The notes beneath the pieces were generated by a model, which did no database searches, had not been told where the DNA came from, and was given only the letters and a program-made list of their open reading frames with translations. The position numbers and the translations under genes are program-made. A stretch of DNA of 64,000 nt, taken from the NCBI GenBank assembly GCA_020057115.1, contig JAGVGJ010000039.1, positions 52,806-116,805 of the forward strand, given 5' to 3'. This document shows positions 100 to 64,000 of the stretch, in pieces. Every line of letters begins with the position of its first letter. Position 1 is the stretch's first letter. The stretch comes from Candidatus Omnitrophota bacterium. Lineage in GTDB: Bacteria; Omnitrophota; Gorgyraeia; 2-01-FULL-45-10.

Positions 100-376
100 T
101 TAAGGTAATAATTAAGGGACGTTTCTAGGTAATTAAGGTAGGTAATTAAGGGACGTTTCTAAATCTGATCTTGGGACGTTTGTAAATTCCATCCCACACC
201 TGTCCCCTAACTTTTTTGTGGACAAATATGATTCTTTATTTTTGGGACATGCTTAAGATGGATTATATAAAGATTCCTATATCCACCTATGTCCATGCCT
301 GTCTCCCCGTTATCCTGAGGGACAGGTGTGGGATGGAATTTGGGGACACATGCAAGATCAGATTTAGAAACGTCCC
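100..376. repeat. Compound repeat element: direct repeats plus a ~57-bp inverted repeat flanking a ~110-bp core
   Basis: Two ~29-bp direct repeats taaggta(a/g)taattaagggacgtttcta at ~100-128 and ~133-162, and a third gggacgtttgt at 173-183. Left arm 150-207 (gggacgtttctaaatctgatcttg...aaattccatcccacacctgtcccc) is the reverse complement of right arm 319-376, except for a ~10-nt divergent middle. Confidence 0.6.
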
Positions 377-452
377 TTATTTTGAGAAGCTGAGGGGTTT
401 GTGGGCGAAAAATACCCCCACCGATACTGCTTATTTGATATAATATTATGTT

Positions 453-1547
453 ATGAAGATGGTTATTTTGCCCTTTAATGTTAAGGTGCCGGTGCTTGCT
501 TGCGGGGCGGATCTGAAGGGGGCTTTTGCGCTTGCCAAGGGCAATAATGCTTATTTGGTCGATGGTTTCGGCGATCTAAGTGACCCAGACAACCTGGAGA
601 AGTATGAGAAGGCAGTAAAGCTCACCTGCCGGAAGCTAAAGATAATACCGAAGACGATCGTTTGTGATATGCATCCCGGTTATTTCTCAACTCGTTTTGC
701 CGAAAACTGGACCCTGGCCCCTGGCCCCTGGACCCTTAGCAAGGTCCAACACCATCACGCCCACGTGGCCGCCGCTATCATCGACAATTCAATAAAAGGC
801 GACGTGATAGGGGTTGCGTTCGATGGCACTGGCTATGGCCTTGACGGAAATATCTGGGGTGGGGAGTTCTTCATCGGGAGCCTGAAAGGCTTTAAGCGAG
901 CCGGGCATCTGGAATATGTCGCAATGCCGGGAGGGGAAGCAGCGATAAGAGAGCCATGGCGCATGGCGGCGAGTTTTTTACATTCCGCCGGAGTCGATGA
1001 CATCGCAAGATCGTTATACGGTAATAAGACGAAACCCATAAAACTATTGATAGACAAGGCCTTCAATTCACCTCTCACATCGAGCGCCGGAAGATTGTTC
1101 GACGCTGCGGCGAGCATCATCCTTAGAAAAGAGAAGGCGATATTCGAGGCTGAACTTCCGATAGCCATCGAAAAGATAGCCGAAGAGTCATGTGGTGATC
1201 ATTATAAGTGCGCTACTACACCTCAACTCGTGAGAGCTGTGGCGCGCGACTCATTAAAAGGCGTCGAGCGTTCTATAATATCGGCAAAATTCCATAATTC
1301 TGTCGCAAGGCTCATATTGAATACGGCGCGGAAGATAAGAAGAAGCACGAAGATAAAAAAAGTCATTCTCGCGGGTGGGGTATTCCAGAACAGATTTTTA
1401 ACAGAGCGCGCTACGGGGCTTTTAGAGAAAGCGGGCTTCGAGGTATTTATTCACACTGACATTTCAACCAATGATTCCGGCATCCCGATAGGGCAGATAG
1501 CGCTCTGCGGGACCCTGGACCCTGGATCCTGGCCCCTGCACGCATAG
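453..1547 (+). CDS. hypF: HypF-like carbamoyltransferase, Kae1/TsaD-like C-terminal domain only; acylphosphatase, Zn-finger and YrdC domains absent
   Basis: 364 aa with the HHHAHVAAA motif and FDGTGYGLDG, aligning only with the C-terminal half of canonical ~750-aa HypF. Sits in a hyp cluster with hypCDE. Confidence 0.75.
   Translation: MKMVILPFNVKVPVLACGADLKGAFALAKGNNAYLVDGFGDLSDPDNLEKYEKAVKLTCRKLKIIPKTIVCDMHPGYFSTRFAENWTLAPGPWTLSKVQHHHAHVAAAIIDNSIKGDVIGVAFDGTGYGLDGNIWGGEFFIGSLKGFKRAGHLEYVAMPGGEAAIREPWRMAASFLHSAGVDDIARSLYGNKTKPIKLLIDKAFNSPLTSSAGRLFDAAASIILRKEKAIFEAELPIAIEKIAEESCGDHYKCATTPQLVRAVARDSLKGVERSIISAKFHNSVARLILNTARKIRRSTKIKKVILAGGVFQNRFLTERATGLLEKAGFEVFIHTDISTNDSGIPIGQIALCGTLDPGSWPLHA
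712..735 (+). repeat. C-rich orientation copy of the (GGGNCCA)n tandem repeat, in frame inside hypF (encodes WTLAPGPWTL)
   Basis: Sequence ccctggcccctggcccctggaccc. Confidence 0.6.
1509..1538 (+). repeat. C-rich orientation (CCCTGGN)n repeat at the hypF 3' end, just upstream of hypC
   Basis: Sequence ggaccctggaccctggatcctggcccctg, encoding the hypF tail ...DPGSWPLHA. Confidence 0.6.
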
Positions 1548-2236: not shown

Positions 2237-3355
2237 ATGATGAAGTATATCGATGAGTTCAGGGACAAGCATCTGATCGTGAAGATCGCTAAGCGCATAC
2301 GCGAAGCGGTCGATCCGAGCCGCACTTATAATTTCATGGAAGTATGCGGCACGCACACTATGAGCATATTCCGCTTCGGCCTGCGGGACCTGTTGCTTAA
2401 GAATATAAGGCTTATTTCAGGCCCGGGATGCCCGGTCTGCGTCACGCCGAACGAATATATCGATAAAGCGATCGCAGCCGCAGAGCTTCCAAATGTCATC
2501 ATAGCCACATTCGGGGATCTCTTCAGGGTCCCGGGATCATATTCAAGTCTTGAAAAAGAAAAAGCCGCAGGCAGAGACATCAGGATGGTCTATTCAAGCA
2601 CCGATGCGATCGAACTCGCCAAGAAGCATCCCGATAAGGAGGTTGTTTTCCTGGGCATAGGGTTCGAGACCACGATACCTACGGTAGCCATGTCGATATT
2701 GATGGCGAAGAAGGAGAAGTTGAATAACTACTCGGTCCTCTCCGGCCATAAGACGATGCCGGAAGTATTAAGAGCGCTCGTCACAGACAGGTCCGTAAAG
2801 GTGGATGGTTTTATCCTTCCGGGGCATGTGAGCGCTATAATAGGCGTAAAGCCTTATCAGTTCCTGGCCAAGACCTACAAAAAGAGGTGCGTCATAACCG
2901 GTTTTGAACCGCTGGATATCTTGCAGGGGATATTGATGCTCGTTTCGCAGAAGAAGCCTAAGGTGGATGTTCAATATACGAGGATAATAGAGGCTTCCGG
3001 CAACAGGCGCGCCGAAGCGAGTATTGAGAAGGTCTTCCAGAAGACGATATCTAATTGGCGCGGGATCGGAGAAGTAAGAAATAGCGGTCTAAAGATACGG
3101 AAAGCTTTTTCCGCCTTCGATGCGGAAGATAAATTCAACATAAGGCCAAGGCCTTCAAGAGAACATGCCGGATGTGTATGTGGGGAAGTGCTTAAGGGCG
3201 TAAAAACGCCGCTTGAGTGCAGATTATTCTCCAAGGTCTGCAACCCTGAGCATCCTGTCGGTGCATGTATGGTAGCTACCGAAGGGACGTGCGCGGCATA
3301 TTATAAATACAGGGGCCAGGGGCCAGGGGCCAGGGGCCAGGAAAAAACATGGTGA
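2237..3355 (+). CDS. hypD: Hydrogenase maturation factor HypD
   Basis: 372 aa with the conserved CGTH, GPGCPVC and CAAYY motifs. The C-terminal ~14 aa (RGQGPGARGQEKTW) are encoded by the G-repeat. Confidence 0.9.
   Translation: MMKYIDEFRDKHLIVKIAKRIREAVDPSRTYNFMEVCGTHTMSIFRFGLRDLLLKNIRLISGPGCPVCVTPNEYIDKAIAAAELPNVIIATFGDLFRVPGSYSSLEKEKAAGRDIRMVYSSTDAIELAKKHPDKEVVFLGIGFETTIPTVAMSILMAKKEKLNNYSVLSGHKTMPEVLRALVTDRSVKVDGFILPGHVSAIIGVKPYQFLAKTYKKRCVITGFEPLDILQGILMLVSQKKPKVDVQYTRIIEASGNRRAEASIEKVFQKTISNWRGIGEVRNSGLKIRKAFSAFDAEDKFNIRPRPSREHAGCVCGEVLKGVKTPLECRLFSKVCNPEHPVGACMVATEGTCAAYYKYRGQGPGARGQEKTW
3312..3341 (+). repeat. Perfect G-quadruplex motif (GGGGCCA)x4 overlapping the hypD 3' end and the hypE Shine-Dalgarno
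   Basis: Sequence ggggccaggggccaggggccaggggccagg, with AGGA at 3339-3342 and 6 nt to the hypE ATG at 3349. Confidence 0.75.
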
Positions 3356-4353
3356 GAAAAATACTTTTAAGTCATGGTTCCGGTGGGAGGATGATGCATG
3401 AACTTCTCGATAAGTTCATATTGAAAGAGCTTGATAACGAGATATTGAGGGAGAAGAAGGATTCGGCCATCCTGGCCCTCGGGAATAAGAAATTCGCATT
3501 TACCACAGACTCTTATGTGGTCGACCCGATAATATTCCCCGGAGGAGATATCGGAAGCCTTGCTGTGTGCGGCACAGTGAATGATCTTGCCGTTTGCGGC
3601 GCCCGTCCGTTATACCTGTCAGTCAGCGCTATTATCGAAGAAGGGCTCGAGATGGCGATATTGGAACGGGTCATAAGATCTGTAAGGGATGCGGCTAAGG
3701 CTGCCGGAGTAAAGGTCGTTACAGGCGACACTAAAGTCGTCAACAAAGGCTCTTGCGACAAGATATTCTTAAATGCGAGCGGTATCGGCGAGATATATTA
3801 CGGCGGGCTTTCAGCGGACAGGATAAAACGCGGAGATGTCATCATAGTTAACGGCCCAATAGGCGAACATGCCATAAGCGTCTTGTCAAAGCGCGAAGGC
3901 ATAGGCTTCAACACAACTGTCAAGAGCGATTCAGCGCCGTTAAACAAGCTTATCACCGGGATATTAGGCGCCTCTAAAAAAGTCAGGTTCATGCGCGACC
4001 CGACGCGCGGGGGCGTCGCAACCACATTGAATGAGATAGTAAAAGAGATGCCTTTCGGGATAATGCTCAATGAAAGCGATATACCCCTCAGCAATGGCGC
4101 AAGAGGGGCGTGCGAATTGCTTGGGCTCGATCCTCTATACCTTGCGTCTGAAGGCAGGGTGCTTGTTGTCGTCGCCAAAGAGGATGCCGGGAAAGTCTTG
4201 CGCGCGATGAAGCGTGATAAACTGGGCAGGAAGGCCAAGGTAATAGGTTGCGCGGTCAAGGAACACGCGGGAAAGGTATTTCTCAATACAGTATCCGGCG
4301 GCAAGAGGATAGTTGACATGCTTTCAGGCGAGCAGCTTCCGAGGATATGCTAG
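3349..4353 (+). CDS. hypE: Hydrogenase maturation factor HypE (carbamoyl dehydratase)
   Basis: 334 aa, PurM-like, with the canonical C-terminal ...PRIC motif. Confidence 0.9.
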   Translation: MVRKILLSHGSGGRMMHELLDKFILKELDNEILREKKDSAILALGNKKFAFTTDSYVVDPIIFPGGDIGSLAVCGTVNDLAVCGARPLYLSVSAIIEEGLEMAILERVIRSVRDAAKAAGVKVVTGDTKVVNKGSCDKIFLNASGIGEIYYGGLSADRIKRGDVIIVNGPIGEHAISVLSKREGIGFNTTVKSDSAPLNKLITGILGASKKVRFMRDPTRGGVATTLNEIVKEMPFGIMLNESDIPLSNGARGACELLGLDPLYLASEGRVLVVVAKEDAGKVLRAMKRDKLGRKAKVIGCAVKEHAGKVFLNTVSGGKRIVDMLSGEQLPRIC

Positions 4354-4357
4354 AACG

Positions 4358-5077
4358 ATGTATAAAGAACGCGCTTACAGGAGATGGGTAAAGTCAGACG
4401 GACTTGTATCATTTGAGGCCGTGGTGAAGGAGACGGATCTATTCGTATCGGCCGATAGCGATCTAAAGAAAGAAGCCGTCGCATCCATAATGCGTTATCG
4501 CGGGGAACTTGAAGATTATATTATGAAGCATGAGGATTTTTTGACATCTCTTGAGCCGGTAGAAGTTAAAGCCGATGCACCCGAGATAGCGAAAGTGATG
4601 GCTGCAGCCGCCAAGAAAGCCGGCGTAGGCCCGATGGCTGCCGTGGCAGGCGCTATGGCGGAATTTGTGGGAAGAGGCCTTCTCAAGTTATCCGGCGAGA
4701 TAGTGGTTGAAAATGGCGGGGATATATTCTTAAAAATAAATAAGAAGCGCTCCATGGGTATATTCGCGGGTGAGCGCTCGCCATTTACGGGAAAGCTTGC
4801 CATTGAGATCGAGCCTGATAAGGATGGAGTTGGGGTCTGCACTTCAAGCGGCACGGTGAGCCATTCTTTAAGTTTCGGGAATGCAGATGCGGCGCTTATC
4901 ATATCGGATAATGCCGCGCTTGCCGATGCGATGGCGACAGCTACAGGCAATCTCGTTAAGAGCGCATCCGACATAGAGAAAGGTGTCGCTTTCGCGAAGT
5001 CTGTAGAAGGCGTCAGGGGAGTGCTTATCATAGTAGGGGATAAATTAGGCAGTTGGGGTGATATAAAGTTAATATGA
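4358..5077 (+). CDS. UPF0280 / COG2122 (ApbE-like) family protein
   Basis: About 240 aa, Ala/Gly-rich (GPMAAVAGAMAE..., GVCTSSGTVSHSLSFGNADAA), resembling the archaeal UPF0280 family. The alternative upstream start at 4313 overlaps hypE. Confidence 0.45.
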   Translation: MYKERAYRRWVKSDGLVSFEAVVKETDLFVSADSDLKKEAVASIMRYRGELEDYIMKHEDFLTSLEPVEVKADAPEIAKVMAAAAKKAGVGPMAAVAGAMAEFVGRGLLKLSGEIVVENGGDIFLKINKKRSMGIFAGERSPFTGKLAIEIEPDKDGVGVCTSSGTVSHSLSFGNADAALIISDNAALADAMATATGNLVKSASDIEKGVAFAKSVEGVRGVLIIVGDKLGSWGDIKLI

Positions 5078-5089
5078 CAAGGAGGGGCC

Positions 5090-5497
5090 ATGGTATCAAA
5101 AAGGATAGTGTTAACATTTCCGCACAAGCTGCTCGACCAGCCGATAGCATATAAGCTGGTGAAGGACCACAACCTGATGTTCAACATCCTTCAGGCGAAG
5201 ATAACCCCAAAGGAAGAGGGCATCATGGTCCTTGAGCTTTCCGGAAAGAAGGAAGATTATGCGCAGGGAATAAAGTACCTTACGGAACTCGGCATAAAGA
5301 TAAAGCCTTTAAGCAAGGATGTCTCAAGAAATGACGTAAAGTGCACGCATTGCGGGGCATGCATCACTATATGCCCGACAGGCGCTTTATACATGGACAG
5401 GGACACGATGAAGGTCATATTTGACGATGAAAAATGCATAGCCTGCGAGCTTTGCGTAAAGGCCTGTCCCCCGAGGGCAATGGTGGTAAAGTTCTAA
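5090..5497 (+). CDS. NIL-domain protein fused to a 2x[4Fe-4S] ferredoxin
   Basis: An N-terminal ~75-aa NIL-like domain followed by CTHCGACITICP and CIACELCVKACP cluster motifs. A good SD (aggagg) lies 8 nt upstream. Confidence 0.75.
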   Translation: MVSKRIVLTFPHKLLDQPIAYKLVKDHNLMFNILQAKITPKEEGIMVLELSGKKEDYAQGIKYLTELGIKIKPLSKDVSRNDVKCTHCGACITICPTGALYMDRDTMKVIFDDEKCIACELCVKACPPRAMVVKF

Positions 5498-5553: not shown

Positions 5554-6603
5554 ATGGAAAAAACATTTTACACGATAACAAAAAAAGACCTTTTTGACCT
5601 CTTCTCTAGGTTGTCAAAAGAGTACAGGATATTCGTCCCTTACAAGAAGGGCGAAGGCCTGTACTTCGGCGAATTCAACGCCGAGAAGGAAGACGAGATA
5701 GAGCTGGGCGCGATAAGACAGGCTCAGCCGTTCAAGTCTTTTATATCCGTTTCCCGCGAGAATGTCCTGGAGCCCGCAGAGAAGCGTTCCGGCCCTGTCA
5801 TAGTGGCCGGGGTGAAAAGCTGCGACCTCCAGAGCATGGTCCTGCAGGACCATGTATTCCTCGAAGGGGATTTTAAGGATCCTTTCTACGCAAAAAAGAG
5901 AGAAGATACGATCATAATATCCCATGACTGCACCACTGCCAAAGAGACGTGTTTCTGCATGGCGATGGCGGGCATGCCATTCCCCCAAAAAGATTTTGAC
6001 ATGAACCTCTCCCCGGTCGACGGGCACATACTGGTTGAGATCGGAAGCGAAAAGGGCAGGGCGATGGTGGGCGGTTATAAGACCTTCTTTAAGAGCGCCG
6101 ACTCCCGCGATATGAAAGCCAGGGATGAGCTGCGCGCTAAAGTCTCCGAAGAGGTCTCAGGTTTTATAAGTAAGCGTGGCACCCCGAAGACGACCGAACT
6201 GTGGGGGGTGGTAAAAAAGAATTACGACAACATCCCGTTCTGGCAGGATTTTTCTTCGACGTGCGTCGAATGCGGCGCATGCAATCTCGGATGCCCGACC
6301 TGCCACTGCTTTCTTCTTTATGACTCAAAAGGAAAGGACATCCCCAGGAGGATGAAGGCCTGGGATTCGTGTCTTTATAACACTTTTGCAAGGGTGGCCG
6401 GTGACCATAACCCGAGAAAACACCTTTATGAAAGGCTGCGCAACAGAATAGACAAAAAGCTCGACTACTTTCCGCATGTCATGAATTATTTCGCCTGCAC
6501 GGGGTGCGGGCGCTGTATAGAGGCGTGTCCCGGCGATATCGATATCAGAGAGATAATGAAAGGGCTTATGAAGGGCGCCTGGAACAAGCCGCCGAATGAT
6601 TAA
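5554..6603 (+). CDS. AsrA / sulfhydrogenase-beta (HydB)-like Fe-S subunit
   Basis: 349 aa with Cys motifs CFCMAMAG, CVECGACNLGCPTCHC and CTGCGRCIEACP, matching the anaerobic sulfite reductase subunit A / sulfhydrogenase beta architecture. Confidence 0.7.
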   Translation: MEKTFYTITKKDLFDLFSRLSKEYRIFVPYKKGEGLYFGEFNAEKEDEIELGAIRQAQPFKSFISVSRENVLEPAEKRSGPVIVAGVKSCDLQSMVLQDHVFLEGDFKDPFYAKKREDTIIISHDCTTAKETCFCMAMAGMPFPQKDFDMNLSPVDGHILVEIGSEKGRAMVGGYKTFFKSADSRDMKARDELRAKVSEEVSGFISKRGTPKTTELWGVVKKNYDNIPFWQDFSSTCVECGACNLGCPTCHCFLLYDSKGKDIPRRMKAWDSCLYNTFARVAGDHNPRKHLYERLRNRIDKKLDYFPHVMNYFACTGCGRCIEACPGDIDIREIMKGLMKGAWNKPPND

Positions 6604-7423
6604 TATGAAAAATCCGTATAGCTATATTGAGGCCGAGATACTGGACGTCATCGAAGAGTCCCCGACCATCAAGACCTTCAGGCTTAAGCCTAAGGCAGAC
6701 ATAGGTTTCAGGGCGGGCCAGTTCATGGATGTCACCATCCCCGGGGTTGGAGAGGCGCCGTTCACGCCTTCCTCGAACCATGACGTCAAGGAGTATCTGG
6801 ATTTCACCATCATGAAGGCAGGCCGCGTCACGAATCTTCTTCACGGGATGAAAAAGGGAGAGGTCGTGGGCCTGAGGGGGCCTTACGGCAAGGGATATCC
6901 TCTGGACATATTTAAAGGCAAGGATATATTTATCGTAGGAGGCGGCGTAGGGCTTGCGCCATTGAGGGCTCTGTTATACGCACTTTTCAACGAGGTCGAT
7001 GATTACAACAAGATAATACTTAAATACGGTTCAAGGTCCCCGAAGGACATAATATATAAAAGCGAGATAGATACCTGGAGAGACAGGGGCAAGAATGTGA
7101 GCCTTGAGGTCTCGTGTGATACCGGAGACGATACATGGAAAGGCAACGTCGGTCTTGTGACCACGATATTGAAAGACCTTGATATAAATATGGCTAATGC
7201 CGTATCGATAGTATGCGGCCCGCCGATAATGATGAAGTTCGTCACGTTCAAGATCCTGGACCTCGGGTTCAAAGACACGCAAGTCTATCTCTCGATGGAG
7301 AAGAACATGTCGTGCGGCATCGGCAAGTGCGGCCACTGCAGGATAGGGCCGTATTACGCATGTAAGGACGGGCCGGTATTCACTTACGACAAGATCAAGG
7401 ATCTGCCGAATATATGGGATTAA
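6596..7423 (+). CDS. AsrB / sulfhydrogenase-gamma (HydG)-like FAD/NAD(P)H-binding [2Fe-2S] oxidoreductase (PyrK family)
   Basis: 275 aa with a ferredoxin-NADP reductase-like fold (RAGQFMDV, GGGVGLAPL) and C-terminal CGIGKCGHCRIG...C [2Fe-2S] motif. Confidence 0.8.
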   Translation: MINMKNPYSYIEAEILDVIEESPTIKTFRLKPKADIGFRAGQFMDVTIPGVGEAPFTPSSNHDVKEYLDFTIMKAGRVTNLLHGMKKGEVVGLRGPYGKGYPLDIFKGKDIFIVGGGVGLAPLRALLYALFNEVDDYNKIILKYGSRSPKDIIYKSEIDTWRDRGKNVSLEVSCDTGDDTWKGNVGLVTTILKDLDINMANAVSIVCGPPIMMKFVTFKILDLGFKDTQVYLSMEKNMSCGIGKCGHCRIGPYYACKDGPVFTYDKIKDLPNIWD

Positions 7424-7427
7424 TAGA

Positions 7428-7458
7428 GGGACAAGGGGCCAGGGTCAAGGGTCCCAGG
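7428..7458 (+). repeat. G-tract repeat (4 G3-4 tracts) filling the asrB-like / hycB-like intergenic spacer and carrying the SD AGGTGA
   Basis: Sequence gggacaaggggccagggtcaagggtcccaggtg. Confidence 0.7.
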
Positions 7459-7464
7459 TGAAAT

Positions 7465-7968
7465 ATGAAAAGGCTATTCATAGATCTGGACATATGCGAT
7501 CAATGCGACGAATGTGTCTCGTCATGCTCTTATGTCCAGCATCCGAAGAATGAAGGCATCACATCCTTAAGGGAGCTGGCGCATTTCGTCGTAGTCTGCC
7601 GCAGGTGCGATGATGCCCCGTGTGTGGCCTCATGCCCGTGGGAAGCGCTCGAGATGCAGGACTATAATGCGCTCAAGAGATACATGATGAGGTGCACCTC
7701 ATGCAAGTCATGTTCGAGGGCATGCCCGTTCGGGGTCATATATCCGGAGACGATACCTTTCATCATAGCAAGGTGCGATTTCTGTCTCGGAAGGCTCAAA
7801 GAGGGCGAGACGCCGGCCTGTCTCCAGGCATGCACGCATAATGGCGTCAAGTACGGCGAGTTCGAAGAAAATAAGGACGAACATATCTACCAGGTATCGG
7901 AATATCTGGTTGTGAAGACAAATTACAAATGGGAGAGGATCCTCCAGGCTCCTCCGAAGAAGAAATGA
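7465..7968 (+). CDS. HycB/NrfC-like multi-[4Fe-4S] electron-transfer subunit
   Basis: 167 aa with four Cys clusters: CDQCDECVSSC, CRRCDDAPCVASCP, CTSCKSCSRACP and CDFC...C. Confidence 0.7.
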   Translation: MKRLFIDLDICDQCDECVSSCSYVQHPKNEGITSLRELAHFVVVCRRCDDAPCVASCPWEALEMQDYNALKRYMMRCTSCKSCSRACPFGVIYPETIPFIIARCDFCLGRLKEGETPACLQACTHNGVKYGEFEENKDEHIYQVSEYLVVKTNYKWERILQAPPKKK

Positions 7969-8903
7969 ACATTTTTGGATACTTAGGGCTACTCTTGATA
8001 TTCCCGGGCTTTTTGTTCACGGCCTTCATGGGGCTCATGGTGGGCTGGGTGGACAGGAAGGTCACGGCCAGGATACAGTACAGGGTCGGCCCTCCGTGGT
8101 ACCAGAATTTCTTCGATATTGCGAAGCTATTCTTCATAAAGGAGACGCTGATACCGGCGGGCGTGTCTAGGGCGCTGTTCCTCGGGATGCCGGCCTTGGG
8201 CCTTGCAGGGGCTACTCTGGTCTCCACGATGGTGCTCGTTATAAACGCATCCCCGAAGACGGGTTTTATAGGGGACCTTATCGTAATAGCGTACCTTTTG
8301 CTCATACCGCCTATCGCGGTGATGCTCGGCGGGTTCGTCTCCGAGAACAGCCTCGCGTCGCTCGGCGCGTCGAGGGAGATGAAGCTCATGATGTCATATG
8401 AGCTTCCGTTCATCCTTGCCATGACCGTGCCGATAATAAAGTGCGGCTACTCGATAAAGCTGGGGGAGATGATATCGGCGCAATATGTCAATGGCCCGGT
8501 ATTTGCGAGCGCATCCGGGGTGATCGCTTTCTTCGTCATGATGCTGTGCATCCAGGCGAAGCTCGGATTTGTACCGTTCGATATGCCCGAGGCCGAGACC
8601 GAGATAATGGCAGGCCCGTATATCGAATATTCAGGCAAGGCCCTCGGGATATTCAAGCTGCAGAAGGCGATGCTCGGGTTCATCATCCCCGTATTCATGA
8701 TAACTTTGTTCTTCGGCGGGATAAAGGATGACTTCTCCGGTTTTATGAAGAACATAGCCGAGTTCGCAGGGATACTGGTAATAATGATAGTCATAAAGAA
8801 CACCAACCCCCGCGTCAGGATAGACCAGGCGATGGGATTCTTCTGGAAACCTGTCACCGCCGCGGCGGTAATAGCGGTGGCGTTGGCGTATTTCGGGAAA
8901 TAG
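7965..8903 (+). CDS. NuoH/HycD/MbhM-like membrane subunit of group-4 hydrogenase complex 1
   Basis: The ORF from 7929 overlaps the upstream gene, so the likely start is MNIFGYLGL at 7965. Polytopic, with NuoH-like conserved residues (RKVTARIQYRVGP). Confidence 0.85.
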   Translation: MNIFGYLGLLLIFPGFLFTAFMGLMVGWVDRKVTARIQYRVGPPWYQNFFDIAKLFFIKETLIPAGVSRALFLGMPALGLAGATLVSTMVLVINASPKTGFIGDLIVIAYLLLIPPIAVMLGGFVSENSLASLGASREMKLMMSYELPFILAMTVPIIKCGYSIKLGEMISAQYVNGPVFASASGVIAFFVMMLCIQAKLGFVPFDMPEAETEIMAGPYIEYSGKALGIFKLQKAMLGFIIPVFMITLFFGGIKDDFSGFMKNIAEFAGILVIMIVIKNTNPRVRIDQAMGFFWKPVTAAAVIAVALAYFGK

Positions 8904-8905
8904 AT

Positions 8906-9340
8906 ATGGGATTAAAAGAAAAGATACTCGCGCGCTCGATATATGTCTTCCATGTCTCAAGCGGCAGCTGCAATAATTGCGATATCGAGATACTGGATTG
9001 CCTGACGCCGAGGTTCGACCTGGAGAGATTCGGCGTGGTACTGGTGGGAAGCGTCAAGCATGCCGATGCCATGTTATGCACCGGATCGGTCAACCGTCTC
9101 ACCGTGCCGCGTATAAAAAAATTATACGAGCAGATGCCCAAGCCAGGTTTTGTGATAGCATGGGGCGCGTGCGGCTCATCGCGCGGGCTCTTCAAGGACA
9201 GCTACAATACCGGTGCGCCGCTCGACGAGATAATCCCGGTCGATGCCTATATCCCGGGATGCCCGCCTAAGCCGGAGGCCGTAATAGGCGCGCTCGTCAA
9301 GCTTAAAGAGAAGATATTGAACAAGAAAGCCGTAAAATGA
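8906..9340 (+). CDS. Group-4 [NiFe]-hydrogenase small subunit (NuoB/MbhJ/EchC-like)
   Basis: 144 aa with the proximal [4Fe-4S] ligand motifs CNNCDIE, GSVKHAD...C and GCPP. Confidence 0.9.
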   Translation: MGLKEKILARSIYVFHVSSGSCNNCDIEILDCLTPRFDLERFGVVLVGSVKHADAMLCTGSVNRLTVPRIKKLYEQMPKPGFVIAWGACGSSRGLFKDSYNTGAPLDEIIPVDAYIPGCPPKPEAVIGALVKLKEKILNKKAVK

Positions 9341-9825
9341 CGCTGGACGATATACTCGCAAGCCTTGATAAAAGGTTTAAAGATAGCATCCAGAAGATAG
9401 AGAAGACATCGCCGAAGAAGGCATTCGTGGATATGGACGCGGCGAAGATAACGCAATTCGTTATCCATATCTTCAAGGACCTGGGATTGAGGCCGAATAC
9501 CATAAGCGCTGTCGATACTTTTGGCGGCTTTGAGCTGCTTTACCATTTTTCATATGACCGTTCTGGCGTTACGCTGTCATTAAGAGCTTTATTAAAAGAC
9601 AGGACGGAGCCGACGATAGATACGATCACCGGCATTACCAGATCAGCCTGGTGGATAGAAAGAGAGATACATGAGCTCTTCGGTATAAATTTCAGGGATA
9701 ACAAGGACTTGAGGACTCTGCTATTGCCTGACGACTGGCCGAAGGGCGTATATCCTTTAAGAAAAGATTTTATACCTCCGAAGAGAGATTCGCGGGGCCA
9801 TACCCATAAACCGGGAGCAGCATGA
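9337..9825 (+). CDS. NuoC/MbhK/EchD-like subunit
   Basis: 162 aa, NuoC-like, with a conserved C-terminal segment (ERE.HELFGI, PDDWPKG.YPLRKD). Confidence 0.85.
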   Translation: MTLDDILASLDKRFKDSIQKIEKTSPKKAFVDMDAAKITQFVIHIFKDLGLRPNTISAVDTFGGFELLYHFSYDRSGVTLSLRALLKDRTEPTIDTITGITRSAWWIEREIHELFGINFRDNKDLRTLLLPDDWPKGVYPLRKDFIPPKRDSRGHTHKPGAA

Positions 9826-11009
9826 GCCATAAAGCTACTATACCAATAGGTCCATATCATCCTCTGCAGGAAGAGCCTGAGTTTTATAAGCTGGTGGTAG
9901 AAGGCGAGCGGGTGGTGGATGTTGACGTCAGAATAGGATATAACCACCGCGGCATCGAGAAGATATCCGAGGGAAAGAGCTTCGACCAGGCGATATTTGC
10001 CGTAGAGCGCATATGCGGCATATGTTCTGGCAGCCACCCGATAGCGTGCGTGCAGGCCATAGAAGAGATCGCAAAGGTCGAGATCCCCGAGAGGGCTTTA
10101 TTTATCCGCTCCATCATACAGGAACTCGAGAGGCTCCATTCACACATGTTATGGCTGGGCCTTGCCGGGCACTTCCTGGGATATAACACCATATTTATGT
10201 GGGGATGGAAATACAGGGAGCCGATATGCGATATCATGGAGACTGTCACAGGCAACAGGCAGAACTATGGCATCATGAAGGTGGGCGGCGTAAGGCGCGA
10301 CATAGAGAAGGAACATGTCCCGTATATATTATCAAGGCTCGACGAATTCACTAAACAGCTCGATATGCTGAAAGGCGCCATACTCGACGATCCGGTGCTT
10401 CACGCGCGGCTTAAAGGCGTCGGGATCCTGACAAAAGAGAAGGCCATCGATTATGCAGCCCTTGGCCCGACCGCCAGGGCCTCCGGCGTAGATATAGACG
10501 CAAGGCGCGACTATCCTTATGCGGCATACCCAAGGGTCAAGTGGAATGTCATTACCCAGAAAGAGGGCGACGTATTCGCAAAGACGGTGGTGAGGATACT
10601 TGAGATGTATGAATCGGTCAATATCATAAGGCAGTGCCTGGATAAAATGCCGCAAGGGCCGATCGACGCGAAGGTAAAGGATGTTCCGCCGGGTGAAGGA
10701 ATAGGCCAGATAGAGGCTCCGCGCGGCGAATGTTTCCATTATATAAAATCGGACGGCACGAATTCTCCCATGAGGCACAAAATAAGGGCCCCGACCTTCA
10801 TGAATTTTGCCACGTTCCGCGAAACTGTCATAGGCGAGACGGTCTCCGACGCTACGATAATACTGGCCGCGATCGATCCGTGCTATTGCTGCACCGAGAG
10901 GATGGTAGTAGTCAACTCCAAAGATAGAGAGCTGTATAAAGGACCGGACCTGATAAAGCTGTCGCAGGAAAAGACAAGGCTCATAAAAGAGAAGATGCAG
11001 AGGCTATAA
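9822..11009 (+). CDS. Group-4 [NiFe]-hydrogenase large subunit-like (NuoD/MbhL/EchE-like), possibly Mbx/MBS-type
   Basis: 395 aa with N-terminal L1 motif RICGICSGSH and C-terminal L2 motif DPCYCCTER (an extra Cys where Ech/HycE have Ser). A 32-aa C-terminal extension follows the Arg, the expected substrate of the HycI-like protease. Confidence 0.85.
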   Translation: MSHKATIPIGPYHPLQEEPEFYKLVVEGERVVDVDVRIGYNHRGIEKISEGKSFDQAIFAVERICGICSGSHPIACVQAIEEIAKVEIPERALFIRSIIQELERLHSHMLWLGLAGHFLGYNTIFMWGWKYREPICDIMETVTGNRQNYGIMKVGGVRRDIEKEHVPYILSRLDEFTKQLDMLKGAILDDPVLHARLKGVGILTKEKAIDYAALGPTARASGVDIDARRDYPYAAYPRVKWNVITQKEGDVFAKTVVRILEMYESVNIIRQCLDKMPQGPIDAKVKDVPPGEGIGQIEAPRGECFHYIKSDGTNSPMRHKIRAPTFMNFATFRETVIGETVSDATIILAAIDPCYCCTERMVVVNSKDRELYKGPDLIKLSQEKTRLIKEKMQRL

Positions 11010-11011
11010 GG

Positions 11012-12823
11012 ATGTACGCGAATATATTAGCGAATATGGTTCTTTTGCCGATATCGGCCGGGCTTGCCATGTTCATCATCCCGGAGCGGTACGGCAGGCT
11101 GGCTAAATTTTTAAGCTTTATCATAGCGCTCGGCCTTTTCGCCGCATCGATATATGTCTTTAATGTTAAGCCGGCATTCTGGCCGGGAGTGGATAAGCCG
11201 ATATTTATGGCAGATACTCTCTCGTCATTTATAGGGCTCGGGATAGCCTTCTTCGCGCTTGTCACTTTGACATATTCATTCGCTTTCATAGATAAAGATA
11301 TCGTGAAGTATAACAGTTATGTCCTCATCACCCTCGGCAGTTCTTTAGGAGCTTGCTACAGCGCGAACTTCCTGGGGCTTCTGATATTCTGGGGGGTCCT
11401 CGCGCTTGCCCTGTATCTACTGGTAAATATGTCCGGGACATCCGGAGCGGCAAAGGCGTCCGAGAAGGCGCTTGTGATAATAGGCGGCACCGACGCCCTC
11501 ATGTTGTTCGGCGTAGGCATACTCTGGGCCGCGACAGGCTCGTTCTCAATGGATAAGACGCACCTGCCGCTGGACAGCGCGCTATCCATAATAGCGTATC
11601 TTTCCATAGCGAGCGCTTCCCTGGCAAAGGCCGGTGCGATGCCGTTCCACTCGTGGCTGCCCGACGTGGCTGAAGAGGCCAAAGTGCCGGTCACAGCGTA
11701 TCTTCCGGCATCGCTCGACAAACTTCTGGGGATATATCTCCTCGCCAGGATATCGCTCGATATCTTCGCGATGAACAGCATATCTAACACCATACTCCTT
11801 GTCATCGGATCGGTAACCCTCATATTCGCCGTGACGCTCGCGCTCGTCCAGCATGACATGAAGAGGCTCCTCGGATATCATGCCGTATCTCAGGTTGGTT
11901 ATATGATCATCGGCATCGGCACGGCAAGCCCCATAGGGATAGCCGGAGCGCTGTTCCACATGCTCAATAACGCGATCTATAAATCATGCCTCTTCCTTAC
12001 GAGCGGCGCGGTAGAGCAGAAGACCGGCTCGACCGACATGTCGAAACTCGGCGGGCTTTCGAAATATATGCCCGTGACCTTCGCCGCGTGCCTTGTGTCA
12101 TCGCTTGCCATATCGGGCATTCCGCCGTTCAACGGGTTCGTCTCAAAATGGATGATATATCAGGGCATCATAGAATCGGCCAAGAGTTCCGGCCCGCTCT
12201 GGGTAATATGGCTGGTCGCGGCGATGTACGGGAGCGCGCTGACGATAGCAAGCTTCATGAAACTCCTGCATTCGGTATTTCTGGGTCGCCCTGCGAGGAA
12301 TTTCGGGGACGTGAAAGATGTCGGGCTTCTTATGGCAGTCCCCATGGCGATACTTGCGCTTCTTTCGATAATATTCGGGATATTTGCGTTCACCATACCG
12401 CTGAAGCTTTTCATAATACCGGCTGCCGGCAGCGCGGTATTTTATATAGGGACATGGAGCCCGGGCGCGGCTACCATGATGCTTGTAGCCGGCCTTATCA
12501 TAGGCCTCGGGATATACGCGTTCATGAAGTCCAAGTCATTCCGCACGACTACCACTTTCATAGGGGGCGAGGAGCCGTCGTCGATGGACAGGGTCTCCGG
12601 CACGGAATTCTATGACACGTTGAAGGATATGAAATGGCTCGGCAGGATATATAAGAAGGAAGATTCCGGCTCTTTTGATATATATGTCCAGACGAAGAAC
12701 CTTATATCGGTATTCACCGGTGTCCTCCAGCGCCTTCACAACGGAGTGCTGCCGACTTATATAGTATGGTGCCTTCTCGGGATGATCGGTTTGTTCATCG
12801 TCCTGTTCATGGGTAAGATATGA
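11012..12823 (+). CDS. MrpA/MrpD/NuoL-like antiporter subunit (MbhH-like)
   Basis: 603 aa, polytopic, with conserved WLPDV..A and HAVSQ.GYM motifs. Confidence 0.85.
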   Translation: MYANILANMVLLPISAGLAMFIIPERYGRLAKFLSFIIALGLFAASIYVFNVKPAFWPGVDKPIFMADTLSSFIGLGIAFFALVTLTYSFAFIDKDIVKYNSYVLITLGSSLGACYSANFLGLLIFWGVLALALYLLVNMSGTSGAAKASEKALVIIGGTDALMLFGVGILWAATGSFSMDKTHLPLDSALSIIAYLSIASASLAKAGAMPFHSWLPDVAEEAKVPVTAYLPASLDKLLGIYLLARISLDIFAMNSISNTILLVIGSVTLIFAVTLALVQHDMKRLLGYHAVSQVGYMIIGIGTASPIGIAGALFHMLNNAIYKSCLFLTSGAVEQKTGSTDMSKLGGLSKYMPVTFAACLVSSLAISGIPPFNGFVSKWMIYQGIIESAKSSGPLWVIWLVAAMYGSALTIASFMKLLHSVFLGRPARNFGDVKDVGLLMAVPMAILALLSIIFGIFAFTIPLKLFIIPAAGSAVFYIGTWSPGAATMMLVAGLIIGLGIYAFMKSKSFRTTTTFIGGEEPSSMDRVSGTEFYDTLKDMKWLGRIYKKEDSGSFDIYVQTKNLISVFTGVLQRLHNGVLPTYIVWCLLGMIGLFIVLFMGKI

Positions 12824-13341
12824 TAGAGATACATCTTCTTCTGCTTTTTATGATCGCCGCGGCCGTGATAGCCGTAGAGGCGAAAGACCTTTTGTCGAGC
12901 GTCATAGCGGTCGGCGCTGTCGGGATAGGCCTCTCGCTGTCATTTCTGGTACTGAAAGCGCCTGACCTCGCAATAATGCAGCTTGTGGTCGAGATATTGA
13001 GCCTCATCATACTCATCAGGGGCACGATACGGAGGGACCTTCCGTTCTCTGCTTCAGGAAGATGGTATTTTAATACGATAACCACGGTATGTTTTGTGAT
13101 AGTCTTCATAGGCCTTGCGCTCCTGACATTTAGGAGCCTGCCGGATCTGGGCAATGCCACGATGAGGGTATCGAAAGCCTATATCGCGGAAGGGATGCTT
13201 AGGACAGGCGCCAAGAACATAGTCGCAGCCATAACCCTTAATTACAGGGCATACGACACCCTGGGCGAGGCGACTATGATATTCGCCGCCGTAATAGGCG
13301 TCCTTGTGATAGCAAGGAAGACAGGCAAAAAGGAAAAATAA
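12820..13341 (+). CDS. MnhB/MrpB-domain membrane subunit (MbhD/E-like)
   Basis: 173 aa hydrophobic protein within the Mrp module. Confidence 0.55.
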   Translation: MIEIHLLLLFMIAAAVIAVEAKDLLSSVIAVGAVGIGLSLSFLVLKAPDLAIMQLVVEILSLIILIRGTIRRDLPFSASGRWYFNTITTVCFVIVFIGLALLTFRSLPDLGNATMRVSKAYIAEGMLRTGAKNIVAAITLNYRAYDTLGEATMIFAAVIGVLVIARKTGKKEK

Positions 13342-13342
13342 T

Positions 13343-13804
13343 ATGGCCGATATAGCCAGAGAGCATGGGATGACGGTGATAGTGAAGACGGTGACGCGTC
13401 TTACGCTGGCATTCATCCTTCTCTACGGCATATACATAGCCCTGAACGGCCACATATCTCCGGGGGGCGGGTTCGTGGGCGGTGTCATAGTCGCGCTTTC
13501 ATTCGTCCATGTGATGCTCGCCTTCGGCAAAGAGGCCGCGCTGAAGAGGCTCCATTCCAAGGGCTTGAGGCTCGCCGTGAATATCGGCGCGCTCATGTTC
13601 CTCTACATAGTCATGATGCGTTTCGCCTGGAAATTCCCGGCCGGAAGGTTCATCATAGAGAAGATGAGGCCTCACGAGATATTCGCGAATGAGATAATAT
13701 TACCTCTTTGCGAATTAGCGATAGTCGGGGCGGGATTATTCACCGTATTTATCGCGCTGGTGCTGCTCTGTAAGTATGAAGAAAAAATAGAGAAGGAGAA
13801 GTAG
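13343..13804 (+). CDS. MnhB/MrpB-family subunit (MbhF-like)
   Basis: The HISPGGGFVGG signature of the MnhB family. Confidence 0.7.
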   Translation: MADIAREHGMTVIVKTVTRLTLAFILLYGIYIALNGHISPGGGFVGGVIVALSFVHVMLAFGKEAALKRLHSKGLRLAVNIGALMFLYIVMMRFAWKFPAGRFIIEKMRPHEIFANEIILPLCELAIVGAGLFTVFIALVLLCKYEEKIEKEK

Positions 13805-13808
13805 GCCT

Positions 13809-14147
13809 GTGACAGCGTATATATTATGCCTTGTATTATTCTCGATAGGCCTTTACTGCGCCCTAAGGAAGAGGAACGTGGTCAAGATAATAATCGGGAT
13901 CGGCATCATGGAATATGCGGCGAATTTCCTATTCGTCTTGATAGGATACCGCTCCGGCGGCCGCTCGCCGATATATGCCAATGACCAGGTTATAAAGAGC
14001 ATGGTAGATCCGCTTCCGCAGGCCGTGGTGGCAGTAGCGATCGTGCTCAACCTGTCCGTGACGCTACTACTGGTCGCGATAGCGATAAAGCTTTATGAAA
14101 AGTACGGGACATTTGACATAACCAAGATAAATGACTTGAAGGGGTAA
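13809..14147 (+). CDS. MrpC/NuoK-like subunit (MbhG-like)
   Basis: 112 aa with three TM helices, NuoK-like. Confidence 0.7.
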   Translation: MTAYILCLVLFSIGLYCALRKRNVVKIIIGIGIMEYAANFLFVLIGYRSGGRSPIYANDQVIKSMVDPLPQAVVAVAIVLNLSVTLLLVAIAIKLYEKYGTFDITKINDLKG

Positions 14148-14156
14148 TAAAACAAC

Positions 14157-15653
14157 ATGGCTTTCATCCCATTCTTCATAGCGATACCTTTAGGAGCGGC
14201 ATTCTTGATCTCGCTTGCGGGAAAGAGGTTCAGGGCGTCTTCCGGCCCAATCGCGTGCGCGGCATCGCTCTTCCTCCTTGCGGCATCCCTCGCAATTGTG
14301 AAGCCGGTCCTGGCCCACAAGACGCTTGTATACAGGGTGGGGAACTGGCTTCCGCCGTTCGGCATACCCATGATAGTAGACAGCCTGACGGCGCTCATGC
14401 TCGTACTTGCCGGTATCGTCGTATTTTTTGTCACCATTTATTCTATAGGATATATGAAGCCATATACGGACAAGTGGAAGTATTATACCCTCCTCATGCT
14501 TCTGGTGGGAGGGTCTAACGGCGTTCTTCTGGCCGGCGACATATTTAATATGTTCGTCTTTCTCGAGATAGCGTCCATATCCGTATACGCGCTTGTCGCC
14601 TATGGTACCGAAAAACATTCTCTGGAAGGGGCATTCAAATATGCAGTAATGAGCTCCATAGGCTCGGTCTTCATATTTCTGGGTATAGCCATCCTCTATA
14701 GCTACACATCCACGCTTAACATGGCAGACATGGCCGCTGTCCTTATGCAGAAGGGGCCGGGAATGATAGTGCCTTTTGTCACGACCCTCTTCCTGGTCGG
14801 CTTCGGCCTCAAGGCGGGCCTCATGCCTTTCCACGCGTGGCTTCCGGACGCGTATTCCGCGGCTCCGGCGACGGTTCCGGCATTATCATCCGGAGTCCTG
14901 ATCAAGGTATTGGGGTTATACGCGATATCAAGGATCGTCTTCAACGTGTTCGGCATAAATGCCGAGGTCTCCAATATCCTCGTGATATTAGGTTCTCTGT
15001 CCATGGTAGGCGGAAGCATCCTCGCTTTCGGGCAGACGAAGATGAAGCGGCTCCTTGGGTATTCGAGCATCAGCCAGGTCGGATATATAGCTATCGGCCT
15101 GGGCGTCGGGACGCCGCTCGCGCTCTTCGGGAGCATATTCTATCTTTTGAACCACAGCCTTTCAAAGGCCCTCTTATTCTTAAGCGCCGGAGCGATCGAA
15201 CATTCGACGGGCACCGATGAGCTTGGATCTATAAGGGGAACCTGCAGGAGATCTCCGCTGGCCGGATGGGCCAGCCTTGTGGGCGCGCTATCCATAAGCG
15301 GCATACCGCCTCTCGGAGGATTCTGGGCGAAGCTCATTATAATATTCGCGTGCATACAGGCCGGAAGGCCGATGCTCGCATTCCTCATGGTGCTGGCAAG
15401 CATATTTACGCTCATCTATTATTTTAAAGCGTTTACCGGCGTCCTGTTCGGCTCTGAGTCAGAAAAGTCCAGGCCGTTCGAAAAGGCACTGTCGCCCCAT
15501 ATGGCCCTTGCGCTATTCTGCCTTACCGCTCTTGTGGTTGCCGCGGGGCTTGTGCTCCTTCCGGGGAAATGGCAGGCGCTTATTAACGGCGCGGTGGGCG
15601 TTCTTTCAGGCGGAAGGGATTACGCGATCATACTATTTGGAGCCATGAGATGA
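14157..15653 (+). CDS. Second MrpD/NuoN-like antiporter subunit of complex 1 (H'-like paralogue)
   Basis: 498 aa with FHAWLPDAYSAAPA and the SISQVGYI motif. Confidence 0.85.
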   Translation: MAFIPFFIAIPLGAAFLISLAGKRFRASSGPIACAASLFLLAASLAIVKPVLAHKTLVYRVGNWLPPFGIPMIVDSLTALMLVLAGIVVFFVTIYSIGYMKPYTDKWKYYTLLMLLVGGSNGVLLAGDIFNMFVFLEIASISVYALVAYGTEKHSLEGAFKYAVMSSIGSVFIFLGIAILYSYTSTLNMADMAAVLMQKGPGMIVPFVTTLFLVGFGLKAGLMPFHAWLPDAYSAAPATVPALSSGVLIKVLGLYAISRIVFNVFGINAEVSNILVILGSLSMVGGSILAFGQTKMKRLLGYSSISQVGYIAIGLGVGTPLALFGSIFYLLNHSLSKALLFLSAGAIEHSTGTDELGSIRGTCRRSPLAGWASLVGALSISGIPPLGGFWAKLIIIFACIQAGRPMLAFLMVLASIFTLIYYFKAFTGVLFGSESEKSRPFEKALSPHMALALFCLTALVVAAGLVLLPGKWQALINGAVGVLSGGRDYAIILFGAMR

Positions 15654-16150
15654 TGAAGAAGGCATTCCTGTTCATGCTTTGGTATCTGGTCTGGTGCCTT
15701 CTCGCATGGCCGCCAAGCATGCAGCACATGATAATAGGTATATTCGTAGCCTCGTTCGTGTCATTGATGACGAACGACATGTTCTCCGGAAAGCCGCTGG
15801 ATACCAGGTTGAATCCCGCCAGATATATGTGGTTCCTTTATTATGTAGCAGTGTTCGCATGGGAATGTTTCAAAGCGAATATAGACGTGGCGTACAGAGT
15901 GTTGCACCCGGACCTTCCGATAAAGCCCGGGACGATAAGGGTGAAGACAAGCCTTAAATCCGACGCCGGCCTCACTTTCCTGGCAAATTCGGTTACGCTT
16001 ACCCCGGGGACCACGAGCGTCGATATCGACAGGGATAAAGGTCTTATATATATTCACATGCTTTATATCAGCGACAGTTATGACAAGGATTCCATGAAGC
16101 TCAAAGTCGTAGACAAGTTCGAGAAGATATTGAGGAGGATATTCGAATGA
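15650..16150 (+). CDS. MrpE-like subunit (MbhA-like)
   Basis: 166 aa. The size, position in the Mrp module and hydrophobic N-terminus fit MnhE. Confidence 0.55.
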   Translation: MMKKAFLFMLWYLVWCLLAWPPSMQHMIIGIFVASFVSLMTNDMFSGKPLDTRLNPARYMWFLYYVAVFAWECFKANIDVAYRVLHPDLPIKPGTIRVKTSLKSDAGLTFLANSVTLTPGTTSVDIDRDKGLIYIHMLYISDSYDKDSMKLKVVDKFEKILRRIFE

Positions 16151-16512
16151 TCCCCGGAAGGGTCCGCTGGTTCATAGGCCTCGTGGCGTCATTTGCGGTC
16201 CTGGCGCTGATATTATTCCTGCCGCTTCCGTCGATGTTAAAGTGGCAGTCGGGCTTCCTGGGCCGCGCGTTCCTGTGGCTTCTGGTATGCGCCATACTTT
16301 GTCTGGCAAGGGTGGTGAGGGGGCCGACCGCGCCGGACAGGTCGGTCGCCATAGACATGCTCGGGATATTGATAGTCGGTTTCTGCGCCATCTTAAGCCT
16401 TTCTACGGGAAGAGATTGGTACATAGATATAGGGATAGCGTGGGCGCTGCAGAGCTTTATCGGCGTTATGGCTCTTGCCAAATACCTGGAAGGAAGGGAC
16501 TTCGATGAATGA
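16147..16512 (+). CDS. MrpF-like subunit (MbhB-like)
   Basis: 121 aa with three TM helices, positioned between the MrpE-like and MrpG-like genes. Confidence 0.55.
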   Translation: MIPGRVRWFIGLVASFAVLALILFLPLPSMLKWQSGFLGRAFLWLLVCAILCLARVVRGPTAPDRSVAIDMLGILIVGFCAILSLSTGRDWYIDIGIAWALQSFIGVMALAKYLEGRDFDE

Positions 16513-16840: not shown

Positions 16841-16848
16841 AGGAGCCT

Positions 16849-17457: not shown

Positions 17458-17458
17458 A

Positions 17459-18079: not shown

Positions 18080-18080
18080 G

Positions 18081-52353: not shown

Positions 52354-52354
52354 G

Positions 52355-54175: not shown

Positions 54176-54185
54176 GAGACAATAA

Positions 54186-56417: not shown

Positions 56418-56420
56418 TAT

Positions 56421-56756: not shown

Positions 56757-56758
56757 AG

Positions 56759-57232: not shown

Positions 57233-57237
57233 ATCAA

Positions 57238-63944: not shown

Positions 63945-64000
63945 TTCCTTGACTCCTGCCAGCTCAAATATGCGCTGGCGGTGCTGTTGGCCACTTTGCC

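Follow-up and report, generated by a model that had tools for sequence, protein, structure and literature searches.

A short, probably lineage-typical HypF beside a probable REP/REPIN-like repeat cluster at an Omnitrophota hyp operon

We analysed a stretch of 64,000 nucleotides from a Candidatus Omnitrophota bacterium (GenBank assembly GCA_020057115.1, contig JAGVGJ010000039.1, positions 52,806 to 116,805), from here on called the window, at the left edge of which a short hypF gene lies next to a cluster of repeats. The gene (453-1547, plus strand) starts with ATG and encodes a HypF1-type protein of 364 aa, which consists of the Kae1-like carbamoyl-transfer domain alone, with the catalytic motifs intact. 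It is the first gene of an operon with the order hypF-hypC-hypD-hypE. The repeats (94-382) are intergenic and are positioned between a terminator-like hairpin at 28-65 and the promoter at 436-444. On balance, we think it probable that the locus combines an intact, lineage-typical short HypF with an independent cluster resembling repetitive extragenic palindromes (REP) and their hairpin-forming doublets (REPIN).

The domain content of the protein was consistent in three comparisons. Pfam matches of the open reading frame (ORF) 453-1547 were limited to HypF_C (residues 11-110, 7.6e-28) and HypF_C_2 (residues 120-348, 3.3e-70), while acylphosphatase (PF00708), the two zf-HYPF zinc fingers (PF07503) and the YrdC-like domain (PF01300) gave no Pfam match in this ORF. 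The protein covers positions 383-738 of the TIGR00143 HypF model (741 positions) with 252.3 bits, which is below the cut-off of 466.1, and it aligns with residues 392-752 of the HypF structure 3VTH (761 residues). Since Pfam, TIGR00143 and 3VTH agree, the start of the ORF coincides with the boundary of the Kae1-like domain, and the original prediction of a 364-aa hypF reduced to this domain was confirmed. The Kae1-like domain with its metal and nucleotide motifs, by which a canonical HypF is recognised (TIGR00143 equivalog), is present. In an alignment of 22 short HypFs, Q99-H100-H101-x-x-H104, D124-G-T-G127 and G213-R214-x-x-D217 were invariant, as were G308-G309-x-F-Q-N313 and D341.

Next to the window protein stands a large group of similar proteins. 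The best 120 matches in a collection of 5.8 billion proteins were all 348-412 aa long, Kae1-only and 52-71% identical to it, and the named sources among these 120 were Candidatus Omnitrophota/Omnitrophica. The closest relative was L146 (L-numbers are the labels of the loci compared), with 71% protein identity. The NCBI pipeline labels the short-HypF relatives 'hypothetical protein', and a literature search returned no paper naming both HypF and Omnitrophota/Omnitrophica. Among 80 species-representative loci, a short open frame of 369-423 codons was found in nine Omnitrophota loci and in one metagenome-assembled genome labelled Planctomycetia; nearly all other phyla, and the Omnitrophota locus L060, have an open frame of ~750-830 codons. 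A neighbour-joining tree built from the Kae1-like domains, which has no bootstrap support and is indicative only, placed the 16 non-adjacent short forms in one clade beside the full-length L060. Judged from these sequences, the short HypF appears to be an intact, selected and lineage-typical form, the normal state of the clade rather than a truncation.

We searched for the missing N-terminal half with tblastn, for which eight full-length HypFs, including one from Omnitrophota, supplied N-terminal queries of 393-463 aa. Neither the six frames of the window nor 19 related short-hypF loci, 15 of which include several kb on either side of the gene, gave a match better than E = 0.27. No Pfam match to acylphosphatase, zf-HYPF or YrdC was seen in any of the 62 window ORFs scanned. 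In nine relatives, the gene 5' of the short hypF encodes a pyruvoyl-dependent arginine decarboxylase (PvlArgDC). The N-terminal HypF half is not near the short hypF, being absent from the window and, in the related loci, from the 10 kb around the gene. When an Omnitrophota N-terminal half was used for a database search, the matches from this phylum were contig-end fragments only; two candidates for a stand-alone half (P0127 and P0138) were rejected as full-length genes cut by contig ends. The same search also returned the adjacent split of L091 described below. Full-length Omnitrophota hypF sits elsewhere, after chorismate-binding and aminotransferase-IV genes in L093 and after hycI-hypA-hypB in L092. 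The window also has a chorismate-binding/aminotransferase-IV pair (18573-20890), and the next gene there is a glycosyltransferase, not hypF.

The few bases left of the repeats are compatible with the same upstream gene. The window begins with g ttc tta g..., which might perhaps be the end of PvlArgDC, whose C-terminus reads ...AVFLF before the stop. The hairpin at 28-65 has the form of a bidirectional terminator (A-run, stem, T-run), with an RNA fold of -16.8 kcal/mol and z = -5.0 on the plus strand, and is followed by UUUUUUAUUU. It probably closes the upstream operon. A search of positions 1-2400 against Rfam (E <= 1) returned no family, and two sub-threshold small RNA matches fell on this terminator.

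The short hypF gene itself carries tandem heptamers. An array of the CTGGACC type with 4.3 copies (707-736, plus strand) lies within a variable loop of the protein, and a second array (1510-1538, plus strand) lies at the 3' end of the gene. In the matching hypF loop of the closest relative L146 there is a different array (GTGGTCC/GTGGACC). The window contains six short arrays of one heptamer family (GGNCCCT / AGGGNCC, 2.7-4.6 copies), at 707-736, 1510-1538, 3310-3341, 7427-7453, 33135-33153 and 57193-57220. They are mostly positioned at the 3' ends of genes and give GPW/GPG-type tails on HypF, HypD and a hydrogenase small subunit. Since the period is not a multiple of three, a change in copy number would shift the frame.

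Downstream of hypF, the remaining genes of the operon are all on the plus strand. These are hypC (1564-1776; protein starting MCLAIP, Pfam HupF_HypC 7e-27), hypD (2237-3355; Pfam HypD 1.5e-148) and hypE (3349-4353; Pfam AIRS and AIRS_C), the product of which is the acceptor of the carbamoyl group. The order is the same in the relatives: L001, L085, L089 and L090 share short hypF, hypC, a spacer, hypD, hypE and then further genes, namely a UPF0280/ApbE-like gene, a NIL-ferredoxin gene and a group-4 [NiFe] hydrogenase. The window ORFs scanned included neither hypA nor hypB.

In the window, hypE is followed by the UPF0280/ApbE-like protein (4313-5077; NCBIfam PRK04334-type, 302 bits) and the NIL-domain ferredoxin (5090-5497), a pair found downstream of hypE in every related operon. 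In methanogens such a pair is linked to sulfur trafficking. Two group-4 (Mbh/Mrp-type) [NiFe] hydrogenase clusters were found at 5554-18563 and 50917-60732, each closing with a HycI-type protease; the first has an additional FAD/NAD-binding and iron-sulfur module, and an H+-pyrophosphatase is encoded at 48523-50847. The spacer between hypC and hypD (1777-2236, 460 nt) contains GC-rich hairpins and an inverted-repeat element at 1953-2218 (arms 1953-1976 and 2195-2218, 24 nt, 92% complementary, 218 nt apart), which is unrelated to the repeats at 109-382. Alignment of this spacer across relatives showed similar length and unrelated sequence, and no conserved RNA or small gene. In L001 the spacer instead holds a 554-aa ORF without a Pfam match.

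A conserved promoter region (405-452, plus strand) separates the repeats from hypF. It has an A-tract near 409-415 and an extended -10 element, TGATATAAT, at 436-444, 8 nt before the ATG. We found TGnTATAATATT (436-447 in the window) or a close variant 6-14 nt 5' of the hypF ATG in 12 genomes (window, L001, L004-L007, L009, L085, L087, L089, L090 and L146). When 60-460 was used as a blastn query, relatives (L006, L007) matched in the promoter region alone. The promoter call rests on the conservation of the extended -10 across genomes, since a simple -35/-10 scan flagged no promoter upstream of hypF. There is no Shine-Dalgarno sequence before the ATG. With the extended -10 only 6-14 nt from the ATG, the hypF mRNA is predicted to be leaderless or nearly so. 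Since the repeats end at 382 and the promoter is downstream of them, the repeats lie outside the hyp transcription unit.

The repeat cluster itself combines direct and inverted copies. The direct repeats of GGGACGTTTCT noticed originally were found again, with exact copies at 116-126 and 150-160 and a copy with one mismatch at 173-183; a further, inverted copy lies at 366-376. With no other match in the 64 kb, the count is four against 0.77 expected. On the plus strand, an AT-rich direct-repeat block (94-184) contains TAATAATTAAGG twice (94-117), the 19-mer TAATTAAGGGACGTTTCTA twice (109-127 and 143-161) and a degenerate third copy (166-184), and within it three direct GGGACGTTT(C/G)T units start at 116, 150 and 173.

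This block runs into a compound inverted repeat. The left arm (144-206, plus strand) is made of an outer module (144-173) and an inner module (184-206, AAATTCCATCCCACACCTGTCCC), and the right arm (319-382, minus strand) of an inner module (319-341) and an outer module (353-382), the latter including the inverted GGGACGTTTCT. The outer modules are 30 nt long and 97% complementary, the inner ones are 23 nt long, 100% complementary and flank an AT-rich core of 112 nt (207-318), and 10-11 unpaired nt separate outer from inner modules. An inverted repeat of ~57 bp around a 110-bp core had been proposed here; the compound repeat is indeed present, with arms of 63-64 nt and a core of 112 nt. The 23-mer of the inner module has no other copy in the window (expected 0.00). 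Folded as single-stranded DNA, 100-390 gave -60.2 kcal/mol compared with -26.1 +/- 3.5 for shuffles (z = -9.8). No convincing ORF was found in the core; a 75-aa ORF at 216-443 had no Pfam match. A tblastn search with a protein of the REP-associated tyrosine transposase (RAYT) type detected no residual RAYT coding sequence in the core. When the sequence was read directly, a target-site duplication was absent at either candidate boundary of the element.

The comparison of the same site in relatives points to the origin of these repeats. The spacer between PvlArgDC and hypF varies in length from ~30 nt to 4.5 kb: ~30 nt in L007, ~220 nt in L006, ~390 nt in L005 (with one GACCTTGCGGGG-type unit), ~660 nt in L004, 682 nt in L009 (with a Y1 transposase gene), 730 nt in L090 (with palindromic repeats), 3.1 kb in L089 (with a Y1 transposase gene and another gene) and 4.5 kb in L085 (with one large gene). 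The Y1 transposases of L009 and L089 are 161 aa long, 54% identical to each other and score 74-78 bits on the NCBIfam model 'REP-associated tyrosine transposase' versus 17-21 bits on IS200. Inverted repeats of 36 nt flank each of the two genes, with a third unit in L089 at 67-100 nt 5' of the hypF ATG. The flanking repeats of L009 carry CCAACCTGTCCC ... GGGACAGGTTGG and the inner arms of the window CACACCTGTCCC ... GGGACAGGTGTG, with the same polarity towards hypF. At the same site L001 has two inverted palindromic units of 38 nt, 82% complementary, which form a REPIN-like doublet (fold z = -8.8). The motif ACCTGTCCC...GGGACAGGT is common to the window, the L009 flanking repeats and the L001 doublet, again with the same polarity. 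Between the inner arm of the window and the REP-like unit of L001, 24 of 29 positions are identical, and the local score of 33 compares with 17.9 +/- 2.4 (maximum 32) in 200 shuffles. Another REP family, GACCTTGCGGGG, was found in several hyp intergenic spacers of L090, L085 and L005, therefore such repeats colonise the spacers of the operon in this clade.

REP/REPIN elements and RAYT transposases were reportedly described by Nunvar et al. in 2010 and by Bertels and Rainey in 2011, in E. coli and Pseudomonas fluorescens SBW25. Like REP/REPIN elements, the window units are intergenic and palindromic, and as an inverted doublet they can fold into one long hairpin. They also lack a target duplication, in line with REP and IS200-type elements. 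As in REP-RAYT systems, a RAYT-like gene is flanked by inverted units at the same locus in L009 and L089. From these similarities, we lean slightly towards a REP/REPIN-like palindromic cluster at 109-382, possibly a relic without a RAYT.

Several observations weigh against this assignment. The RAYT scores of 74-78 are just below the NCBIfam cut-off of 80. Classical REPINs are smaller than the window element in both arms (63 nt here) and spacer (112 nt here). REPs are normally multi-copy, and no second copy of either module was found in the 64-kb window or in the loci compared by blastn-short and nhmmer. No RAYT was seen in the window. Scanning JGI metagenome contigs for exact 20-mers returned a single match within a coding region, at chance level, and two IMG/VR scans for the element returned no match. 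In IMG/VR, 51 unrelated contigs contain hairpins with a GGGACAGGT stem (GGGACAGGT-N8-30-ACCTGTCCC). They have no RAYT nearby and no further similarity to the element, so the shared 9-mer is not diagnostic by itself. Finally, all GGGACAGGT-type units in ~327 kb of Omnitrophota DNA are upstream of hypF. This position is explained by the synteny of a RAYT locus, and a cis-regulatory role, as an operator, would explain it as well. Our preferred reading is a REP/REPIN-type cluster; the locus would have held a RAYT ancestrally or recurrently, and there is none between the arms in the window.

During the IMG/VR scans we also noticed a family of 46-nt nested palindromes, GGGACAGGT-N28-ACCTGTCCC, enclosed by another inverted repeat, (GA)ATCA(R)G ... 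C(Y)TGAT(TC). This family is found in many viral-labelled contigs of ~53% G+C, with <=3 copies per contig and no RAYT nearby (L094, L097, L101, L107, L120, L121, L127, L131, L133, L136, L138 and L139).

The cis-regulatory role is a first alternative. The palindromes containing GGGAC would then be an operator array of the hyp operon, bound by a regulator, possibly a domesticated Y1/RAYT-like protein. Every GGGACAGGT unit in the ~327 kb lies <= ~700 nt upstream of a short hypF (window, L001 and L009), GGGACGTT units also cluster upstream of the short hypF in the window and L085, and GGGAC is enriched in the first 480 nt of the window (6 + 2 copies). Moreover, the 10-11 nt between the arm modules are unpaired, yet GGGAC is found in both modules in the same orientation. 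However, genomes differ in the motif, in its copy number and in how far it lies from the promoter (-36 to -340), and GGGAC units are absent from 11 of the 16 non-adjacent short-hypF loci, several of which have other palindromes upstream of hypF. The palindromes of L089 and L090 at this site are quite different, and the GGGGACGTTTAAACGTCCCC palindrome of L085 resembles an intrinsic terminator of the upstream gene (stem, then U-run). No regulator gene is conserved beside the hyp operon. An operator array is thus unlikely in our view.

The second alternative is a miniature inverted-repeat transposable element (MITE), a non-autonomous derivative of a DDE transposon unrelated to RAYT/REP. The long terminal inverted repeats, the length of ~240 bp and the non-coding, AT-rich core would suit a MITE, and an unrelated second inverted-repeat element is present in the hypC-hypD spacer. 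On the other side, both candidate boundaries lack a target-site duplication, no further copy was found in the window, JGI metagenome contigs or IMG/VR, and the inner arm is homologous to REP-like units at the same locus of other genomes. We consider a MITE improbable. The original prediction had described a MITE or transposon end; a transposon-related origin remains plausible in the form of a REP/RAYT-type element, while the missing target-site duplication speaks against the MITE itself.

It had also been proposed that insertion of the element severed the 5' half of a canonical hypF, or that the N-terminal domains are encoded separately, upstream of and outside the window. The mere adjacency of the element and the short gene speaks for this, and adjacent split hypF genes do exist. 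In L091 (6001-8284 of an unrelated 654-kb metagenome contig), a 395-aa acylphosphatase/Zn-finger/YrdC gene is followed after 77 nt by a 339-aa Kae1-like gene, which is either a real adjacent split or an assembly frameshift, possibly the latter. Against this, the short form is clade-wide, ancient and conserved, with all 120 best relatives Kae1-only and the short forms monophyletic, and the element is missing in most relatives. The element is separated from the hypF ATG by a conserved promoter, the upstream gene in nine relatives is PvlArgDC and not an N-terminal half, and no remnants of such a half were detected in any frame of the window or in the 19 related loci. The comparison with hypF of related genomes, suggested together with the severing idea, turned out against it: the relatives share the short hypF, mostly without the element. 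Severing or an upstream split is therefore very improbable.

An iteron-like array had also been considered at first. As part of a replication origin or a plasmid-like module, it would have three direct 11-mer copies with spacings of 34 and 23 nt and AT-rich surroundings in its favour. It is nevertheless the least credible reading, since no rep, dnaA or par gene or other origin feature is nearby, the neighbouring genes are chromosomal (housekeeping and hydrogenase functions) and their synteny is conserved, the only DnaA-box-like match is weak (7/9) and the array belongs to an inverted repeat. Jointly, severing, an upstream split and an iteron array keep a slight chance at most.

Two regions of the window far from the hyp operon were also noted. 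A gene for a 542-aa large serine recombinase (61026-62654, minus strand) overlaps with its 3' end a tRNA-His gene (61015-61091). Beyond the recombinase gene lie an ORF similar to MerR/helix-turn-helix excisionases (62651-62884, minus strand) and a 211-aa ORF. The region 61015-64000 probably marks one end of an element that integrated at tRNA-His and extends past the window. The other is a 2197-aa ORF (41735-48328) with a mannitol-dehydrogenase-like segment (residues ~330-680) and a weak P-loop kinase-like segment (~1650-1830), which together cover the smaller part of it.

Returning to the short HypF beside a REP/REPIN-like cluster, we propose that the short hypF heads the hypF-hypC-hypD-hypE operon and would be transcribed from the conserved extended -10 promoter abutting its ATG. 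The carbamoyl group transferred to HypE would be dehydrated to a thiocyanate, and the cyanide would then pass to the iron held by HypC/HypD. The products of the operon would serve both group-4 [NiFe] hydrogenase clusters of the window. Domain content, conservation and operon order were observed directly, and we infer the chemistry and the source of carbamoyl-AMP. The repeat element would be either a relic without a RAYT or a non-autonomous doublet on which a RAYT encoded elsewhere could act. It is located 5' of the promoter and played no role in the shortening of hypF.

These results correct an annotation trap. Hundreds of short HypFs of Omnitrophota carry the name 'hypothetical protein' or might be taken for pseudogenes, and they appear to be a conserved HypF1-type maturase that heads a complete hypFCDE operon next to group-4 hydrogenases. 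The repeat cluster mainly documents REP/RAYT-type elements in an uncultured phylum. A bolder idea, which we regard as possible though doubtful, is that a large clade of Omnitrophota may use the Kae1-only protein as its sole HypF, with no acylphosphatase/Zn-finger/YrdC module genome-wide. If true, carbamoyl-AMP for the cyanide ligands of [NiFe] hydrogenases would have to come from an enzyme other than HypF, e.g. a moonlighting TsaC/Sua5-type protein, or from an unrecognised partner; alternatively, the Kae1-like domain itself would activate carbamoyl phosphate. A lesser idea is that the RAYT/REP locus, fixed beside the hyp promoter, may have been recruited for control of the operon. If the N-terminal module is truly missing, the clade would offer a natural test of the source of carbamoyl adenylate, a question raised since the description of HypF1 from Cupriavidus necator.

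The nearest known counterpart is this HypF1 of C. necator (Ralstonia eutropha) H16, encoded at 10034-11218 of the megaplasmid pHG1. Like the window HypF, this 394-aa protein contains HypF_C and HypF_C_2 only. Since it is Kae1-only, the original premise that truncated HypFs normally keep YrdC was wrong. Both proteins align from their first residue (31% identity, E = 2e-51). HypF1 thus starts at the matching Kae1 boundary, and its gene likewise lies directly before hypC-hypD-hypE. There are also differences. The order in C. necator is hypA1-hypB1-hypF1-hypC-hypD-hypE, whereas in the window hypF is the first gene of the operon. The pHG1 record also has full-length hypF copies (three matches), and C. 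necator belongs to another bacterial phylum. We would guess that the two proteins were truncated independently (HypF1 stands outside our tree). Of the three canonical domains HypF1 retains a single one, and it probably depends on preformed carbamoyl adenylate (PMC9100943).

The three half-reactions of canonical HypF have been summarised (PMC9633730). When compared to the canonical enzymes of E. coli and Caldanaerobacter subterraneus (3VTH), the Kae1-like domain of the window HypF aligns over its full length and keeps HHxAH, DGTG and the C-terminal Asp, while the acylphosphatase, the two Zn-finger and the YrdC-like domains are absent. In the synthesis of N6-threonylcarbamoyladenosine (t6A) in tRNA, TsaC/Sua5 of the YrdC family makes the acyl-adenylate and TsaD/Kae1 uses it, as two separate proteins. 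This pair is a precedent for split half-reactions, with the difference that the substrate there is threonylcarbamoyl-AMP, which goes to tRNA A37. The mechanism of the short HypF is extrapolated from the canonical enzyme, and by the t6A precedent a separate YrdC-type source of the adenylate is likely workable. The window hypF and its relatives would belong to a kind already known, as a new and very large set of HypF1-type truncated HypFs.

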